A stretch of DNA of 64,000 nucleotides from the IMG/VR virus record IMGVR_UViG_3300028783_000001, positions 32,001-96,000 of that record; one strand, written 5' to 3'. Numbering within the stretch: position 1 is the first letter of the stretch; each line of letters opens with the position of its first letter. The stretch comes from a virus. Shown here one piece after another: positions 4,309-12,909 of this stretch. The position numbers and the translations under genes were made by a program. The notes under the pieces are model-generated. The model made no database searches. It saw only the letters and a list, made by a program, of their open reading frames with translations, and was not told the DNA's origin.

Positions 4309-4791
4309 ATGGGCGGTAGGAGATTCAATATGAAAAGCATACGGCAAACGTTGGTCGACCAATATCGAAAGATTGATCCATCGCTGTCCGAGCGTGACGC
4401 CAACAATCGAGTTACCGACTTTGGCATAATCACGGGTACGGCAAACGAGCGGCAGAAGCGCTTTCTGAGCCTGGTTTCCGACGCGGCAAACCTAGCGCTA
4501 GCCGAGCGTGTTGTGCAGGCGATGCAGCAGATCATGCCTCCTGAGCGCATCTACTCACGTGATCTTGCGGTTTTGATGTTGATCATCATTAACATCATGC
4601 TCAAGGTGGAGGACGATAAGCAAGACACCTTCCTGGAGGATTATTTCCAGGCGACATCAATGATGCTGCGCCTCTCTCGGTTGGAGGATGACAAGCCAAT
4701 CGATCCTGGCGTAGAGGAGCGAGCCCACAAGGCTGCGTCCGACATGGACGATATCCTGAAGTGGTTTCCTCACGCCAAGGCCGATGAGTAA
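4309..4791 (+). CDS. hypothetical protein (start may be ATG 4330)
   Basis: Long ORF with AGGAG SD before ATG 4330. Confidence 0.65.
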   Translation: MGGRRFNMKSIRQTLVDQYRKIDPSLSERDANNRVTDFGIITGTANERQKRFLSLVSDAANLALAERVVQAMQQIMPPERIYSRDLAVLMLIIINIMLKVEDDKQDTFLEDYFQATSMMLRLSRLEDDKPIDPGVEERAHKAASDMDDILKWFPHAKADE

Positions 4792-5166: not shown

Positions 5167-5631
5167 ATGAACATGGGTTTCTTTGACAACTTCTTCGGTA
5201 GCGCGAAACGCACTATCGCAGTCTACACCAACGACTACACCTTCCTGCATGCGGCTACCGCTGCTGCAGCGTTGGTCATCAATGCCGACGGCGTGGTCGA
5301 GAAGGCCGAGGTCGATTCGGCCCTGGAGGGTTTGCTCAACAATGAGATTCTCAAGGGCTCGTTTAAGAGCCTGGAGATTTCATCGTCGCTGACGGAGGCC
5401 ATCGGCCGGTCAAAGACTCGCTCCGGCAAGGTGGTTCTGAACCGTCAGCTGGAAGACCTCGCGGATCGTCCCGAAACGCAGCGCCAGGACGTGTTCCTGA
5501 TCGCCGCCGACGTTGGTGATACTGACAAGGAAACTGACGACCAACCCGGTATCGGCACCGCCGAACTAGCCGTTTTGAACGCCGTCGGCAAGCTGCTCGG
5601 CCTCGACGCTAACAAGCTTCTCGCTGCCTAA
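5167..5631 (+). CDS. terB: Tellurite resistance TerB family protein
   Basis: FLHAATAAAALVINADGVVEKAE...IAADVGD...GIGTAELAVL..VGKLLGL TerB pattern. Confidence 0.85.
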   Translation: MNMGFFDNFFGSAKRTIAVYTNDYTFLHAATAAAALVINADGVVEKAEVDSALEGLLNNEILKGSFKSLEISSSLTEAIGRSKTRSGKVVLNRQLEDLADRPETQRQDVFLIAADVGDTDKETDDQPGIGTAELAVLNAVGKLLGLDANKLLAA

Positions 5632-5645
5632 CAGGGAGTGAGGTA

Positions 5646-5750
5646 GGGAGTCGAGCGGCGTTGGTGATGGCGTCTCATTTAGGTGAGCGTGAGCCTTGAG
5701 TGATCGGGTTTTATGGTGCCGCTCGACTTTCCTTAAACTGGAGACGCCTT
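5646..5750 (+). promoter_or_regulatory. Structured 5' leader of terC (riboswitch-like)
   Basis: About 15-bp stem (5646-5660 with 5717-5731); loop segment GGCGTCTC (5669-5676) is complementary to GAGACGCC (5741-5748), which overlaps the SD. Confidence 0.45.
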
Positions 5751-6401
5751 ATGTTCCACACTCTAATGCTACTCATCGCAATCGTTTGGATTAACCTACT
5801 GTTATCTGGTGACAACGCGATCGTCATAAGCATGGCGTGCAGGAATATTCCTCTAGAGCAGCGGAGGGTGGGGATTGGTATTGGCGCTGGCGTCGCCGTT
5901 GCCCTACGACTCGTGCTCCTGTTCGCGGCGTCGTGGGTCCTACTTGTTCCAGGAGTTAAGTTGGCTTGTGGAGCCTTCCTCTTCTGGGTGGCGCTTGGTA
6001 TGCTACCCACGGGCGTTGAGGAACCTGTAGATGTATCGAAGGCACCTGGCAAGCTGCTAGCTGCGGTATGGACGGTGGCCATCGCAGACGTTACGATGAG
6101 CACCGACAACGTCGCTGCCGTCGCAGCAATCGCCAGCGGCAATTACACGCTGCTGGTGATCGGCATGCTGATCAGCATTCCGTTTGTCGTGATTGGCGCA
6201 ACGCTAATCTCGAAGGTGCTGGAGTTGTTTCCGATAATGGTTGTCGCTGGTGCAGCCCTTCTGGGCTACCTTGCGGCGACTACACTAGCGAGCGATCCGC
6301 TCGTCGCCATACCTTCTCCGTACTCAGTATTTAGCGGACTGGTAATCGCGGCAATCTTCGCAATGCTTGGCTTCCACCGACAATTGGTGCTGAGTAAATA
6401 G
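5751..6401 (+). CDS. terC: TerC/YjbE family integral membrane protein
   Basis: INLLLSGDNAIVI and ADVTMSTDNVAAVAA TerC motifs, multiple TM segments; start ATG 5751 after GGAG. Confidence 0.9.
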   Translation: MFHTLMLLIAIVWINLLLSGDNAIVISMACRNIPLEQRRVGIGIGAGVAVALRLVLLFAASWVLLVPGVKLACGAFLFWVALGMLPTGVEEPVDVSKAPGKLLAAVWTVAIADVTMSTDNVAAVAAIASGNYTLLVIGMLISIPFVVIGATLISKVLELFPIMVVAGAALLGYLAATTLASDPLVAIPSPYSVFSGLVIAAIFAMLGFHRQLVLSK

Positions 6402-6480
6402 GGGTTCTAGAATTAGTCGCAGGGATGACCCTACCTGGACTGATACGTCAACAGGGTCATTACGAAAAAGGGAATGTAAC

Positions 6481-6882
6481 ATGACTGGCAAGAATCACAG
6501 CAACGATCACGTCGCTCCTCCGGCCACCACCGAGACTCCGGTGACGGAAACTCCGGTCGAGGTCGTGCAGACGGCACAGACCGAAACGCAGCCGACGGCT
6601 GAGGCAACCACAACCGAGGTTCCGGTTACTGGTCCGGTGCCGGACGAAACGATTGCCCAGGCGACGGCTGAGACGATTAAGGTCACGCTGATTGGCGCGC
6701 TCGATGCGCTCTATGAGGGACCTGCCGGCAAGACTCTCAAGGACATGATCCCTGAGCTCGCCGGCACGAAGAAGTATCAGGCGCGCGAAATCATCGACGG
6801 CAAGGCGAAGATGATCAGCCAAGTCGTTCCTTGGATGCACTCTGCCACGATCAAGACGGTTGAGCACGCAGTTCACGGGTAG
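6481..6882 (+). CDS. Ubiquitin-like (ThiS/MoaD-type beta-grasp) protein with a Thr/Glu/Pro-rich disordered N-terminus, ending in Gly
   Basis: C-terminal ~70 aa IKVTLIG...PAGKTLKDMI...IIDGK...TIKTVEHAVHG* fits the beta-grasp pattern; lies upstream of E2-like and E1 genes. Confidence 0.6.
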   Translation: MTGKNHSNDHVAPPATTETPVTETPVEVVQTAQTETQPTAEATTTEVPVTGPVPDETIAQATAETIKVTLIGALDALYEGPAGKTLKDMIPELAGTKKYQAREIIDGKAKMISQVVPWMHSATIKTVEHAVHG

Positions 6883-6909
6883 TCGTGATTGCAATTAGGT
6901 AAGTAGCGT

Positions 6910-6943
6910 AGCGTCGTGGGATTCTGTCCCACGACGCTTTCAT
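6910..6943 (+). terminator. 12-bp hairpin with a short T tract (weak terminator or processing site)
   Basis: AGCGTCGTGGGA-ttctg-TCCCACGACGCT-TTCAT. Confidence 0.6.
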
Positions 6944-6961
6944 CGTTTCAAGGGGAACACC

Positions 6962-8473
6962 ATGGCTACTAGAAAACCAAGAGCTGCCGCCGCCGCACTC
7001 GAGATACCGCTCTACTTTAGAGATGGCTCGCTTAGAGTTCTTTCTGCAGAAAGAATTTGTGAGAGGGATAGGCCCGAATTTTTGATGATCATGAGTGCCC
7101 TCGGTATCGCGCCGATGAGCTACGAGAGTGCACAGAAGCTAATGGGTAGCGACGAAGATTCTGATGATGCAGCCCACTATAAGTCTAAGCGGCGTAAGCC
7201 AAAGCAGGAAGCTACCCTCGGTGATATCCTTGCACGCGCCCTAAACTCTAGTGATGGTACAGGTTCGGGTGGTGTAGAAGACACGACCGCAATCGTCGTG
7301 GACATCGCAAACGCGGCGACTTCTAAGCCAGTCAAGGTTGAAAAGCCTAGCGCCTACTATCCCGTATATCGATTTCATCGTGAGGCAATAAACCTCTCAT
7401 ATAGCCATATGGAGATTCTTAACTGTAACTTCGTGAAAGACTTAATCGCAAACGGTACCTACCTAATCCATACTCATGACAGGTACATTCGCGCAACGAC
7501 TCTTGAGGAGATTTCCGACGTCGAGACGCTTACACGGCTATCGCAGAAGATCTTTGACTGCAACCGCAGCTTCGATATGAAGCGCTACGACTACCTCCGC
7601 ACGCTAGTGTTTACGAGCGTCGTGGTTGATGGGGTTCACTGTAACAAGCGTCCCTTGGAGCTGCCAGCTGGCTGGCGTATTATTCCTGCATCTGAGATTG
7701 GGGATAAGCACGCTGATGATGTCCTATACGTCAACGTGGGTGGTCGTACCCTCTACTTTGCTGGCCTCAGATCGCGTTCACAGGCCAGAGCCATGATTAC
7801 CGATATCGTGCTAAACCATAATATCAGGTCGGAAGAGTTTGCGGCCATATGGGCCGGTGAAACGCTAAAGTCGATAGCGGACGAGCTGGCGTCTGCCGTA
7901 TGGCGTAGGAAAGACTATCTGCAGAAGATGCAGATAGAGGTAATATCAGAATCGCGCCTCAAAAAGATGCACGACATGTTGAAGACGGGTGGTTCAGCAT
8001 GGGTTACCAGCATGGTCGAGCAGCTGATGAACGCCGGGTTTGCGAGCAGTAGGTTCGTAGCCGCCGGCATCATCATGACCACGGGGGACATGTACATAAA
8101 TATCGGCGATCACGAGACTGAGCGAGAGACTCGTTATATCGGAAAGTATGAGGTCATTCTGGGAATGTCCAAGTCGGTGGCAATTCGCAATATCGCCAGC
8201 CCACGGAAGGGAGTTAATCACCCGGTGTTCGACGACGACAATTGCCTCGGTGGGTTTGGTGAGATCCTCACGAGGTGCTTCAGGACCGACGACTACCTAA
8301 CGCTTGGCCTATCGATCCTGGCAATGATCCAGCACTTCAATCCAAGCTATCTGGAAAATTTCAAGGAGTGGCCTTCGGAGATTCCTGCCGAGACATACGT
8401 GTGTAAGATACACACGCTTTACGGTGAAAGCGTTGAAGATTATAGTGGTGATGAAGAGGAAGACGAGGGGTGA
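6962..8473 (+). CDS. Large protein with a C-terminal prokaryotic E2/UBC-like domain
   Basis: IGKYEVIL...IRN...NHPVFDDDNCLGGF (His-Pro...Cys428-Leu-Gly) followed by helices; unknown N-terminal ~350 aa. Confidence 0.6.
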   Translation: MATRKPRAAAAALEIPLYFRDGSLRVLSAERICERDRPEFLMIMSALGIAPMSYESAQKLMGSDEDSDDAAHYKSKRRKPKQEATLGDILARALNSSDGTGSGGVEDTTAIVVDIANAATSKPVKVEKPSAYYPVYRFHREAINLSYSHMEILNCNFVKDLIANGTYLIHTHDRYIRATTLEEISDVETLTRLSQKIFDCNRSFDMKRYDYLRTLVFTSVVVDGVHCNKRPLELPAGWRIIPASEIGDKHADDVLYVNVGGRTLYFAGLRSRSQARAMITDIVLNHNIRSEEFAAIWAGETLKSIADELASAVWRRKDYLQKMQIEVISESRLKKMHDMLKTGGSAWVTSMVEQLMNAGFASSRFVAAGIIMTTGDMYINIGDHETERETRYIGKYEVILGMSKSVAIRNIASPRKGVNHPVFDDDNCLGGFGEILTRCFRTDDYLTLGLSILAMIQHFNPSYLENFKEWPSEIPAETYVCKIHTLYGESVEDYSGDEEEDEG

Positions 8474-8485
8474 TAGGGGCTCATG

Positions 8486-8511
8486 AGCCGTGTGGGACGT
8501 CCCACACGGCT
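8486..8511. repeat. 26-bp perfect palindrome between the E2-like and E1 genes
   Basis: AGCCGTGTGGGACGTCCCACACGGCT; no U tract follows. Confidence 0.9.
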
Positions 8512-8530
8512 AGACTCATAGGGAAACGAC

Positions 8531-9244
8531 ATGACATACGATCTTAGTAGGATTCGGCACGTGGTCGACGCTGACAAGTTTGATGGTGGGATAGCCGTCG
8601 TCGGCTGCGGTGCAATTGGTTCCCGTGTTGCTCACCTCTTATGCGACATGGGGTTTGGGGAAAAGTTGTGCCTCTATGATCCCGATGTGGTGGAGATGCA
8701 CAACTTGGCGTCGGCCACCTACGAGCTGTCTGATATTAGAACGTCAAGCCCTTACCCGAAGGTTGCCGCGCTTCGCTATCAACTGGAGCGCAAGTGGGGT
8801 GAGCCCATACGCTACTCAAATACGATGAGGATAACGCGTCGAGGCCAGTGTGGTCATAAAACGGTATTCACCTGCCTCGATAGTATGGCCGAGCGAAAGA
8901 AGGTGATGGGAACCGCTCTATTCCTTGATGGCCACGCGAAGTGGGTCTACGACGCCCGCATCACAGCTACGACTATCTTCGCCATCGGGTATGACATAAC
9001 GGACCCCAAGCAGCACCGCCATTACATGGAGGAGTTGTATGACGACCCGGATCCAGCGCAGGACGCTCAGATGGGCGGCTGCAATCAGAAAACGAGCGTT
9101 GCCTCGACGGCAGCCATCGCGGCCTCTCTCGTCGTGCAGCTGTTCATGAACCACGTGAACAAGGTCGACGGGCCAAATGAAATCGTCGTCTCATTACGTG
9201 ATTGGACGATGGATGCGCGTTTCTATGAAAAGACGCCTGAGTAA
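8531..9244 (+). CDS. ThiF/MoeB/E1 family adenylyltransferase
   Basis: VVGCGAIGS nucleotide-binding loop, DPDVVEMHNL, KVAAL, TCLDS..ER, DAR, candidate catalytic Cys184 (GGCNQ); no CxxC zinc motifs. Confidence 0.9.
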   Translation: MTYDLSRIRHVVDADKFDGGIAVVGCGAIGSRVAHLLCDMGFGEKLCLYDPDVVEMHNLASATYELSDIRTSSPYPKVAALRYQLERKWGEPIRYSNTMRITRRGQCGHKTVFTCLDSMAERKKVMGTALFLDGHAKWVYDARITATTIFAIGYDITDPKQHRHYMEELYDDPDPAQDAQMGGCNQKTSVASTAAIAASLVVQLFMNHVNKVDGPNEIVVSLRDWTMDARFYEKTPE

Positions 9245-9264
9245 ATAAGTAATAAGAGGTCGAA

Positions 9265-10266
9265 ATGAAACAGCCAATCCCATTCAAAGTTGGACGTTTC
9301 TATGTTTACGTCCAGTATCGTGATGCAGCCATGAGGACTCCCTTCTATGTTGGTAAGGGCAAAGATCGTCGGTGGGAATATCATGAATGGCGCGCGGCAT
9401 CGACCAAACACAGATCGCATCACTTGAACATCATCCGGCAGTTCCAGCGTGAGGGACTGCCGGTCCCCAAGAGGAAGGTCAAGACTGGTCTGACTGAGCA
9501 ACAGGCTTTTGATTTGGAGGTCATGCTGATCGCTAAGTACGGGATTGAGCGTGATGGTGGTTTATTAGTGAATGAATCGTATGGTGGCGATGGTGGAACT
9601 ACCGGATATGTGCATACGCGTAAATCGAGGAAAAAGATTGGTGCTGCATCAAAAGTGAATCATGCTAATCCAGCGACGAAGGCAAAGCATGCGGCATCAT
9701 CAAGAGCTGCCCACGCACGACCAGACGTAAAGGAAAAGCATCGTGCGGCGACTAAGGCAGCTCTTGCTCGACCAGAAGTAAAGAAGCGGCATATGGCGGG
9801 TAGCAAAGCAGTTATGTCGAGTGCTAAGATGCGAATTAGGACTGGCAGGGCTTCCAGAATTTCATGGGCACGACCAGAGGTTAAAGCCAAACGTCGTGCG
9901 ACTGATGCTTTACCAGAGACAAAACGAAGACGGAGCGAGGCGTCAAGAACTGCATTAGCACAACCTGGTGCAAGGAAAAAACAGCATGATGGGTTAGTGA
10001 AATGGTGGGCACGCAGGCGCGGTAAAAATAAGGAGAGACGCGATGAGAGACCTCAAGGAATGCCTGCAGGGCAACGTCACCTTTGTGGGGTATCGCAAAG
10101 GGATTCTTATATATACAAATGCTCCAATGGCTTTCTATTTGAAGTGCCGACCAGCGAAACAGGCGACGCCACCTTTCAGGCGACGGAGCGGGCTATGCTG
10201 CTCATGAATTGGATCAAGGCCGGCATCGCCTACATCGCGAAGCAGGGCGGCGAACTAAACGGGTAG
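9265..10266 (+). mobile_element. Free-standing GIY-YIG homing endonuclease with NUMOD3-like basic repeats; the C-terminal ~50 aa probably belong to the neighbouring frameshifted gene
   Basis: FYVY...PFYVGKGKDRR, AFDLE..LI..YG, LVN..GGDG, then ~17-aa ARPEVK repeats. Confidence 0.85.
10043..10266 (+). pseudogene. Small phage gene interrupted by a 2-nt frameshift in a TA run
   Basis: AAGGAG SD + ATG 10043 gives MRDLKECLQGNVTFVGYRKGILI; removing one TA at ~10108-10115 continues YKCSNGFLFEVPTSETGDATF... Confidence 0.6.
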
Positions 10267-11765: not shown

Positions 11766-12106
11766 GGCTCGACTACATCGACCTTCACGTCAAGCCCGAA
11801 GAGGCGACCGCCATTCGCAAGGCCCTGCTAACCACAGGTTGGGGTTCGGAGTTTGTAACGCACTGGCCCAATACCGGCCTGACGCAGTATCGATTAACGC
11901 GCCTGCCGCAGATGGCGCAGGCATACAATGAAGGGGCGATCAAGATGACGACCAAGACGGAAACTACGAGTGCAACAACAAAGCTGTGCAACACGGTTGA
12001 CATCGTCTCTGCGATGATAGCAGCTGGCTGGATTCATTCAAATACGACAAACGACCATGTCTCTGGTACTCAGACAACCTACTTCGTACGTGTGGTGCCG
12101 GCATGA
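11702..12106 (+). CDS. hypothetical protein(s); true start uncertain, possibly ATG 11945
   Basis: Open frame coupled to the amidinotransferase by ATGA. Confidence 0.4.
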   Translation: MGGLLARLQLHLSQTSDPGGIGLDYIDLHVKPEEATAIRKALLTTGWGSEFVTHWPNTGLTQYRLTRLPQMAQAYNEGAIKMTTKTETTSATTKLCNTVDIVSAMIAAGWIHSNTTNDHVSGTQTTYFVRVVPA

Positions 12107-12909
12107 AATTCTTGATGGTCAACCCATCATACTTCGACGTCACGTATTCGATTAACCGGTGGATGCCAGACAACATCGGTCGCGTCGACACCGTAGAATC
12201 CGTATCGCAGTGGATGAAACTGCACGACTTCATAAGCAGCCACGCCGAGGTTACGACAATCCCCGGCGAACAGGGACTACCTGACATGGTGTTCAGCGCC
12301 AACGCTGGATTCGTCTTAGACGGTCTTGCCACAGTGTCAAACTTCAAGTGCGTGGAGCGGGAACGTGAGGAGGGATTCTTCGCAAACTGGTTCAGTAACA
12401 ACGTTGACTGTGCGATGCACATGCGCGTTCCATTCGAGGGAGCCGGTGACGCCCTGTGGGATGAATACAGTCGTTTAACGTGGTGCGGATACGGGTTTCG
12501 CTCCGACGCGCTCGCACGGACAATACTAGGTACGCGATACGGAATTAATGTTGTGTCACTCGGTCTCATAGATCCACGCTTCTATCACCTCGACACCTGC
12601 CTGTGTCCGCTATCGTCTGGGCATGTAGTCTACTATCCTGGTGCCTTTGATGCGCCGTCTCTTCTAGAGATTCGTGAGCGCGTCGAACCCTCGATGAGAA
12701 TTGAAGTCTACGAGCATGAGGCTCGCAACTTCGCATGCAATGGCGTCGAGGTGGGTGGTTACTACGTTGCCCACCGGCTATCGGATAGCCTACAGCGCCG
12801 GCTGTGCGACGCGGGCTATAAACCAATCGAACTTGAGCTGGGAGAGTTTATGAAGTCTGGGGGTTCAGCGAAGTGTCTGACCCTGCGTCTTGACTACGTT
12901 AGTGCGTGA
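12103..12909 (+). CDS. Amidinotransferase / dimethylarginine dimethylaminohydrolase-like (pentein) enzyme
   Basis: YSINRWM, LPDMVFSANAG, FEGAGD, FYHLDTC, GGSAKCLTL (catalytic Cys). Confidence 0.92.
   Translation: MKFLMVNPSYFDVTYSINRWMPDNIGRVDTVESVSQWMKLHDFISSHAEVTTIPGEQGLPDMVFSANAGFVLDGLATVSNFKCVEREREEGFFANWFSNNVDCAMHMRVPFEGAGDALWDEYSRLTWCGYGFRSDALARTILGTRYGINVVSLGLIDPRFYHLDTCLCPLSSGHVVYYPGAFDAPSLLEIRERVEPSMRIEVYEHEARNFACNGVEVGGYYVAHRLSDSLQRRLCDAGYKPIELELGEFMKSGGSAKCLTLRLDYVSA

Follow-up and report, generated by a model that had tools for sequence, protein, structure and literature searches.

A putative JAB-less ubiquitin-like conjugation cassette encoded by an uncultured jumbo phage of peat soils

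Can a phage encode a complete ubiquitin-like (Ubl) protein conjugation cascade of its own? The question is raised by three adjacent genes of an uncultured jumbo phage of peat soils. They lie in the 64,000-nt stretch of DNA analysed here, below called the window, which comprises bases 32,001–96,000 of a 168.7-kb IMG/VR virus record (IMGVR_UViG_3300028783_000001) estimated to be 66% complete. The genes encode a small glycine-ended protein (ORF1, the candidate tag), a large protein with an E2-like domain (ORF2) and a ThiF-type E1 (ORF3). A sequence-only reading of the window had described three co-oriented ORFs behind a short motif, a T/E/P-rich tail of about 60 amino acids (aa) and a free C-terminal Gly in ORF1, and a GCGAIG loop, a candidate Cys184 and the lack of a zinc CxxC in ORF3. 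All of these were found again, the ORFs on the + strand and the motif, TGAGTAAATA, ahead of the cassette (Table 1). We consider it probable that the three genes form a minimal, JAB-less Ubl/E2-like/E1 conjugation cascade encoded by the phage, the chemistry of which we infer from its parts. This view is based on the identity of the E1, on the UBC-type fold and invariant Cys of ORF2, on the Gly end of ORF1 and on the finding that the three genes are linked in four lineages of phages.

Judged from its sequence, ORF3 is a single-domain E1 adenylating enzyme of the ThiF/MoeB type. It matched the Pfam family ThiF (PF00899) over residues 21–214 with 48.7 bits, above the cut-off of 28.1 (E 7.2e-13), and alignment of an ORF3 profile with E. 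coli ThiF using hhalign gave a probability of 98.3 (E 1.2e-14), both in agreement with the earlier assignment as ThiF/E1. The GCGAIG loop (residues 25–30) aligns with GLGGLG of E. coli ThiF, and D117, in the sequence CLDSM, aligns with CTDNM. Cys184 (codon 9080–9082), located in the crossover loop, is paired in the alignment with E. coli ThiF Cys184 and is the predicted acceptor of the activated Ubl. It is among the residues invariant in six phage E1s (R7, G25, G27, G30, D50, N58, K77, D117, R122 and C184), a comparison made up of three homologues that are about 50% identical and three phage homologues that are about 31–32% identical. Where E. coli ThiF has C169-x-x-C172, the aligned sequence of ORF3 is HYMEELY, and no CxxC was present in the alignment. 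ThiF and MoeB have a structural zinc site of two CxxC motifs, which some other members of the superfamily lack. In NCBIfam and PADLOC, ORF3 obtained sub-threshold matches alone (ThiF, MoeB, Cap2 and PRTRC_ThiF). The best NCBIfam matches were ThiS adenylyltransferases, and the E1-E2 models of PADLOC matched residues 5–91 only, the nucleotide-binding region. ORF3 is, on these matches, a compact ThiF-type E1 outside any named subfamily.

The putative E2-like protein, ORF2, had no family match in Pfam, PHROG, NCBIfam or PADLOC. An exhaustive phmmer search among 1.84 billion proteins gave a family of 25 representatives, aligned mainly over residues 290–500 of ORF2, and by these comparisons the family is new at the sequence level. 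The mean column identity is 16%, and G394, N410, P421 and C428 are invariant in all 25 members. The family core reads RYxGxFE...RNxAxP...[H/N]P...C[LVI]G...DYY, in which the motif [H/N]-P421...C428-[LVI]-G includes the candidate catalytic Cys428 (codon 8243–8245); ORF2 itself contains NHPVFDDDNCLGGF. The protein consists of a middle region, a long helix, the UBC-like domain and an acidic C-terminal tail. A family motif of the type (I/V)EG(I/V)HF is found in the middle region and reads VDGVHC in ORF2. The acidic tail has the sequence DYSGDEEEDEG (window 8440–8470), with the family consensus DxDDEDxx, and resembles the acidic C-terminal tails of Rad6- and Cdc34-type E2s. Matches of the ORF2 tail to acidic proteins in the PDB, Rad6 among them, were rejected as spurious.

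A model of ORF2 residues 259–503 was obtained by AlphaFold2 with the 25-sequence alignment, and had a predicted local distance difference test (pLDDT) score of 84.7; the single-sequence fold gave 34.7. The model begins with a long helix, continues with a second helix and a sheet, and then has a loop with H420-P421 and C428 ahead of three final helices. Both P421 and C428 lie within the model loop 153–173, after the last strand. When residues 336–481 were compared with 48,161 chains by VIA-align, the matches were almost solely UBC, UEV and RWD domains (Z 4.5–5.4, 86–120 residues aligned), including Ubc13/Mms2, E2S, Ubc9, UFC1, Ube2K, Tsg101, the GCN2 RWD domain, Cap2 and CdnG-E2; 104–120 residues were aligned for Ubc13/Mms2, E2S, Ubc9, UFC1, Ube2K, Cap2 and CdnG-E2. 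UBC13, E2S, Ubc9, UFC1, Ube2K, Ube2T and Atg10 matched the domain with Z scores of 4.1–5.4 at a root-mean-square deviation of 3.7–4.3 over 98–123 residues. All matches to the whole domain were UBC, UEV or RWD proteins, for the most part catalytic E2s (Z 4.1–5.4, 106–123 residues aligned). In a second look with VIA-align, the top rows were catalytic E2s (Z up to 5.4, 113–123 residues aligned), any match above Z 3.4 other than UBC was either RWD-like or confined to helices, and unrelated proteins matched the alpha/beta domain with Z 3.3 at best. The nearest named Atlas clusters were UQ_con (0.78) and UFC1 (0.76), both weak leads. A UBC-type fold of residues 336–481, with Cys428 as a candidate E2-type cysteine, is therefore supported by the model in spite of the modest Z scores, because the matches are consistent and the invariant Cys is located in an E2-type loop. 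The whole-domain matches, the model quality and the invariance of Cys428 together bear out the E2-like assignment that had been made for ORF2 from a short motif.

ORF1 had no family match in Pfam, PHROG or NCBIfam, and a word-index search for relatives returned ORF1 itself only. Its residues 1–60 are 82% T/E/P/A/V/S/Q, carry a net charge of -8 and include no aromatic residue. Residues 61–133 make up a conserved, mildly basic domain of 73 residues that ends in His-Gly (...EHAVHG, directly before the stop codon). Homologues were located through synteny in three other phages, and these proteins end in ASGG, ARGG and GRGG, again directly before the stop. The ORF1 domain aligned with these GG-ended proteins in hhalign with E 7.1e-5 over 67 columns, and the z-scores against shuffled sequences were 5.6, 3.0 and 4.1 for the three homologues, with an end-to-end alignment. 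All four tags have acidic tails, 60–102 residues long and with a net charge of -8 to -27. Comparison with E. coli ThiS gave a local match of 13 columns only, at the expected place, and one tag homologue matched Ub-RnfH weakly (E 0.22). A crude propensity profile of ORF1 (strand, coil, helix, mixed helix/strand, strand) fits a beta-grasp fold loosely only. On these grounds ORF1 is a putative Ubl-like tag.

The small size and conserved C-terminus of ORF1 would also fit a reading in which ORF3 works like MccB or like enzymes acting on ribosomally made peptides that are modified after translation (RiPPs), so that nucleotidylation of the ORF1 C-terminus would yield a peptide-nucleotide or other small product and no protein conjugate; passages of PMC12250964 describe ThiF-like adenylyltransferases that assemble RiPPs. 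The conserved part of ORF1, however, forms a domain of about 74 residues and is no short core peptide, the genes kept beside the three do not include one for a protease, an exporter or immunity, and the fold of ORF2 points to a thioester relay. We regard such a peptide product as very improbable.

A number of findings weigh against a conjugation cascade, and they concern each of the three proteins. The E1 belongs to the small enzymes of the ThiF/MoeB type, and the usual task of these in bacteria is sulfur transfer. The tag of the window ends in HG and not in GG, the Pfam models ThiS (PF02597) and ThiS-like (PF14453) found nothing in the four phage records, and a PDB profile search with the tag found nothing either. 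Furthermore, the Atlas model of ORF1 is poor (pLDDT 0.37), the Atlas search gave no usable match, and a beta-grasp fold of the tag is putative. A second alternative is a sulfur-carrier pathway in which the adenylated tag would be converted to a thiocarboxylate and would supply sulfur for a thiolated nucleotide, a cofactor or a modification of DNA or RNA, with Cys428 of ORF2 as a persulfide relay. The ThiS adenylyltransferases among the best matches of ORF3, the alignment of its Cys184 with that of ThiF, and a tag that is like ThiS and MoaD in size and in its Gly end all speak in favour of sulfur transfer. On the other side, no cysteine desulfurase, rhodanese, ThiG/ThiH or MoaE-type partner is located beside the cassette at any of the four loci, the failure of the Pfam ThiS model also counts against a sulfur carrier, and the fold of ORF2 is of the UBC type and not that of a sulfurtransferase. 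In addition, an acidic disordered extension of about 60–100 residues is kept in all four tags, and to our knowledge sulfur carriers have no such extension. We find a sulfur-carrier role quite unlikely.

Further points of this kind concern the E2-like assignment. The structural Z scores of ORF2 are middling and stay below 8, the level at which the tool places a clear match, and Foldseek of the ORF2 model against the PDB gave no significant match. Foldseek against BFVD returned weak, unnamed phage proteins only. None of the 25 family members had a Pfam match at E 0.1 or better, and searches of each genome for PF00179 (UQ_con) and PF14461 (Prok-E2_B) found none at E values up to 10, with PF14457, PF14459, PF14460 and PF14462 covered by hmmscan only. 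Cys428 is the putative counterpart of the E2 catalytic cysteine by its position in the loop and by its motif.

A third alternative is E2-independent tagging as known from Urm1, SAMP and TtuB, in which the E1 and the tag would suffice. The part of ORF2 would then be that of a UEV/RWD-like partner without catalysis, be it as scaffold, as receptor of the tag or as its main substrate. RWD and UEV domains scored as high as catalytic E2s in the wide search (Knl1 RWD Z 5.4, Mms2 5.4, Tsg101 4.8), ORF2 has no UQ_con or Prok-E2 sequence match, and passages of PMC9574740 describe small ThiF-type E1s that are able to drive E2-free conjugation. In the second look, by contrast, the top rows were taken by catalytic E2s, and the Cys is invariant across 25 diverged members, after [H/N]-P and in the loop that in E2s bears the catalytic Cys. 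We know of no RWD or UEV domain with such a Cys, which counts against ORF2 as a non-catalytic partner. Taken together, we think an E2-independent system unlikely and prefer the cascade in which ORF2 acts as an E2-like enzyme.

If the three proteins work together, their genes would be expected to stay together, and they were found adjacent in all four jumbo-phage records inspected. Their order took two forms, in which the tag gene came before or after the enzyme genes; a profile search found the ORF2 family in each of these records. The sequence-only reading had named a lack of co-occurrence of the three genes in other genomes as a finding that would refute it, and this was not what we observed. 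The identity of the E1s between lineages is 31–32%. The cultured Xanthomonas phage PhiXhv-12 (227.6 kb) has the three genes in the order of the window, tag, E2-like and E1, and four sister phages have the same cassette. The tag of PhiXhv-12 is 140 aa long, with an acidic low-complexity N-terminus and the end ASGG. Its ORF2-family protein of 892 aa aligned with ORF2 in hhalign with a probability of 98.9 (E 1.4e-17) and contains HPH...CLGSF, and its E1, a ThiF annotated as 'thiamine biosynthesis protein', has kept Cys184.

The third record, a complete IMG/VR contig with terminal repeats (L004, 205.9 kb), carries, in this order, two tandem ORF2-family paralogues (6201–7970, 589 aa, and 8001–9803, 600 aa), a helix-turn-helix gene (97 aa), the E1 and a tag (176 aa, ending in ARGG). 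The presence of two ORF2 paralogues for a single E1 and a single tag is as expected if ORF2 sets the specificity. In the fourth record (L005, 140.9 kb), the ORF2-family gene is followed by the E1 and a tag of 149 aa that ends in GRGG. Relative to this tag, that of the window has HG at its end in place of GG and contains an insertion of 3 residues, and in the window a strong hairpin parts the tag gene from the enzyme genes. Two further co-occurrences are suggested by source contigs of equal size, P0003 with P0007 (3,284 bp) and P0005 with P0009 (206,146 bp).

Linkage in four lineages bears directly on the possibility that the three genes are chance neighbours that do not work together, ORF1 being a mere acidic phage protein. 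The lack of a family match for ORF1 would fit this. A complex prediction for the E1 (6-row alignment) and the tag domain (3-row alignment) gave no verdict, the score being 0.12 against a mark of 0.32. Adjacency that persists at an E1 identity of 31–32%, with the tag gene on either side, is difficult to reconcile with chance, and we give this explanation hardly any credence.

The sequence-only reading had seen no JAB peptidase in the window, and this observation extends to all four phage records, in which no JAB or Prok-JAB was found. The records searched include the whole 168.7-kb record of the window, with its estimated completeness of 66%; one of the four is complete according to CheckV (100%) and one was deposited as a complete genome.

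Several other searches for carriers gave no match: blastn and tblastn of the phage collection (with the window cassette, ORF2, P0014 and the ORF2 homologue of L005), and scans of metagenomes (queries: the E1 alignment and P0005), of viral sequences (A1, P0005 and P0009) and of genome contigs (A7). One viral contig (L002) was considered as a further carrier and rejected, as it has a partial ThiF (28% identical) and no ORF2-family neighbour. The E1s of crAss-like phages were likewise not accepted as the same system, being paired with a JAB-like protein and having neighbours that do not match the ORF2 family. In Bacteroides phage PhiCrAssBcn20 (L013, OQ221555.1; 2286–4636), a 367-aa ThiF directly follows a protein of 414 aa that matched Prok-JAB weakly (E 4.9e-4), and neither the ORF2 family nor an obvious tag was seen there.

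Compared with known systems, the cassette is predicted to work like Bil or like operons 6a–6e of Iyer, Burroughs and Aravind (2006, PMC1779556), and it belongs to none of these. It resembles Bil (BilABCD), an ISG15-like anti-phage system, in that a single operon has one gene each for a Ubl, an E2-type and an E1-type protein, and in the predicted course of adenylate formation, Cys-to-Cys relay and transfer to a target. Bil has a multi-domain E1 (IAD-AAD-CYS) and a JAB peptidase, BilC (PMC11601596), whereas the phage E1 is one ThiF domain of 237 aa and no JAB was found in the four records. Furthermore, the phage E2-like protein of 503 aa falls in another sequence family and has non-UBC sequence over roughly two thirds of its length, the phage tag has a long, acidic and disordered N-terminus, and the owner of the system is the phage and not the host.

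Operons 6a–6e, which include PRTRC, share with the cassette the combination of E1-like, E2-like and Ubl genes and are often carried by mobile elements. The operons described with a Ubl in PMC1779556 also carry JAB, and the sole phage Ubl context given there is the lambda/T1 tail-assembly pair TAPI-TAPK, which is without E1 or E2. With regard to PRTRC (type 6d), ORF3 scored 19.3 bits against PRTRC_ThiF (TIGR03736), far below the cut-off of 144.75, and again no JAB was found. The pairs ThiF-ThiS and MoeB-MoaD are similar to the cassette in their compact E1, in the alignment of Cys184 with ThiF Cys184, in the size of the tag core and in the Gly end. They differ from it in that the cassette lacks the zinc CxxC and the thiazole or molybdopterin synthase partners, adds a UBC-like protein with an invariant Cys and an acidic tail on the tag, and is not matched by Pfam ThiS. 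Type II CBASS (cyclic oligonucleotide-based antiphage signalling system) is linked to it by the PADLOC E1-E2 match of the E1 and by the Z score of 4.6 between Cap2 (7to3) and the ORF2 domain. Cap2 is, however, an E2-E1 fusion, whereas the phage E2-like protein and E1 are encoded by separate genes, and Cap2 conjugates the CD-NTase and not a Ubl, and works with a JAB (Cap3). A 2021 survey of jumbo phages (PMC7824862) mentions neither ThiF nor Ubl, and no E1/E2-like/Ubl cassette encoded by a phage was described in the literature searched.

The probable course of such a cascade can be outlined as follows. ORF3 would bind ATP and adenylate the free C-terminal Gly of ORF1. The activated tag would then pass to Cys184 in the crossover loop of ORF3 and from there to Cys428 in the UBC-like domain of ORF2, which would transfer it to a target protein, where the accepting nucleophile is probably a lysine. 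The two thirds of ORF2 outside the UBC-like domain may select the target, in place of an E3. The product would be a target protein with a strongly acidic, disordered tail of about 60 residues. The Gly is exposed at synthesis and no JAB was found; neither maturation nor removal of the tag by an enzyme of the cassette is therefore to be expected.

One may speculate further, and with more doubt than confidence, that jumbo phages run an irreversible, JAB-less form of Ubl tagging in which the payload is the polyanionic disordered tail and not the Ubl core. The non-UBC region of ORF2 might pick host or phage targets without an E3, the tail might disable, shield or relocalise them, for example in counter-defence, and two E2-like paralogues within a single phage might then represent two sets of targets.

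The gene arrangement of the window offers some indications of how the cassette may be expressed. Each of the three ORFs has a GGGA-type ribosome-binding site 7–8 nt before its ATG. Copies of TGAGTAAATA on the stop codons of terC and of the E1 gene bracket the cassette with this signal (Table 1). Allowing up to one mismatch, 15 sites were found in the window, all on the + strand, where 2.35 were expected. They span positions 272–41910 and are confined to the + strand gene block, within the first 42 kb, with examples at 4785, 5083, 6391, 9238, 12907, 15336, 27916, 40422 and 41901. The sites are placed on or just past stop codons, 10–80 nt ahead of the next start. As to its role, TGAGTAAATA resembles a promoter of the phage or a signal for RNA processing.

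Table 1. Positions of the cassette genes, of signals around them and of neighbouring genes in the window.
Feature	Position	Strand	Remarks
ORF1 (putative tag)	6481–6882	+	133 aa
ORF2 (E2-like, predicted)	6962–8473	+	503 aa
UBC/E2-like domain of ORF2 (predicted)	7967–8404	+	residues 336–481
ORF3 (E1, predicted)	8531–9244	+	237 aa
TGAGTAAATA motif	6391–6400	+	overlaps terC stop codon; 80 nt upstream of ORF1 start
TGAGTAAATA motif, second copy	9238–9247	+	overlaps stop codon of the E1 gene (ORF3)
Hairpin, perfect 13-bp, GC-rich	6910–6938	+	between ORF1 and ORF2; followed by UUUCAUCGUUUC
TerB-like gene and TerC membrane protein gene	5167–6401		directly upstream of the cassette
GIY-YIG homing-endonuclease-like gene	9265–10266		after the E1 gene; basic repeat-rich middle
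DDAH/amidinotransferase-like gene	12103–12909		3 kb downstream; Pfam DDAH_eukar E 2e-8

The hairpin between the tag gene and the E2-like gene is part of a region (6880–6961) with a folding energy of -31.1 kcal/mol (z -4.76), and none of 200 shuffled sequences folded as well. A terminator scan did not call the hairpin, because its T run is short. It is possibly an attenuator or an RNA-stabilising element, and its position after the tag gene could raise the level of the tag above that of the enzymes.

Many metagenomes of peat and permafrost, from 21 studies in total, contained the cassette sequence at a high word share, and the exact ORF1 protein is carried by five contigs, the longest of 224.5 kb. 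Pieces of all three genes were found at an identity of at least 99% in RNA libraries of four peat studies. These contigs leave parts of the cassette uncovered, and the uncovered parts carry no meaning. RNA-library contigs may contain DNA, a point to be set beside those already named on the side of caution, and the fragments are compatible with expression of the cassette but no proof of it. Two RNA-library contigs from different peat studies (X20 and X21) stop at 6845/6846, 35 nt ahead of the stop codon of ORF1 and some 65 nt short of the hairpin, which hints weakly at an RNA end.

Among the neighbouring genes, the TerB-like gene matched a PHROG family annotated 'tellurite resistance' (E 3.5e-16) and TerC was identified by Pfam (E 1.4e-36). 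Neither is kept beside the cassette in the other phages.

Ubl conjugation in bacteria has been worked out as a weapon of the host against phages, as in the tagging of a phage tail protein by Bil and the priming of CBASS by Cap2. A cascade owned by a phage would, if true, mean that this chemistry is in use on the side of the virus too. Its build differs, with a compact ThiF-type E1, a new and large E2-like family that may include its own part for target recognition, and no protease found; the conserved oddity of the tag is its long, acidic and floppy tail. The three genes are also present in the cultured Xanthomonas phage PhiXhv-12 and its relatives, so the idea is testable at the bench, and the cassette would offer a small tagging system of three proteins for study.

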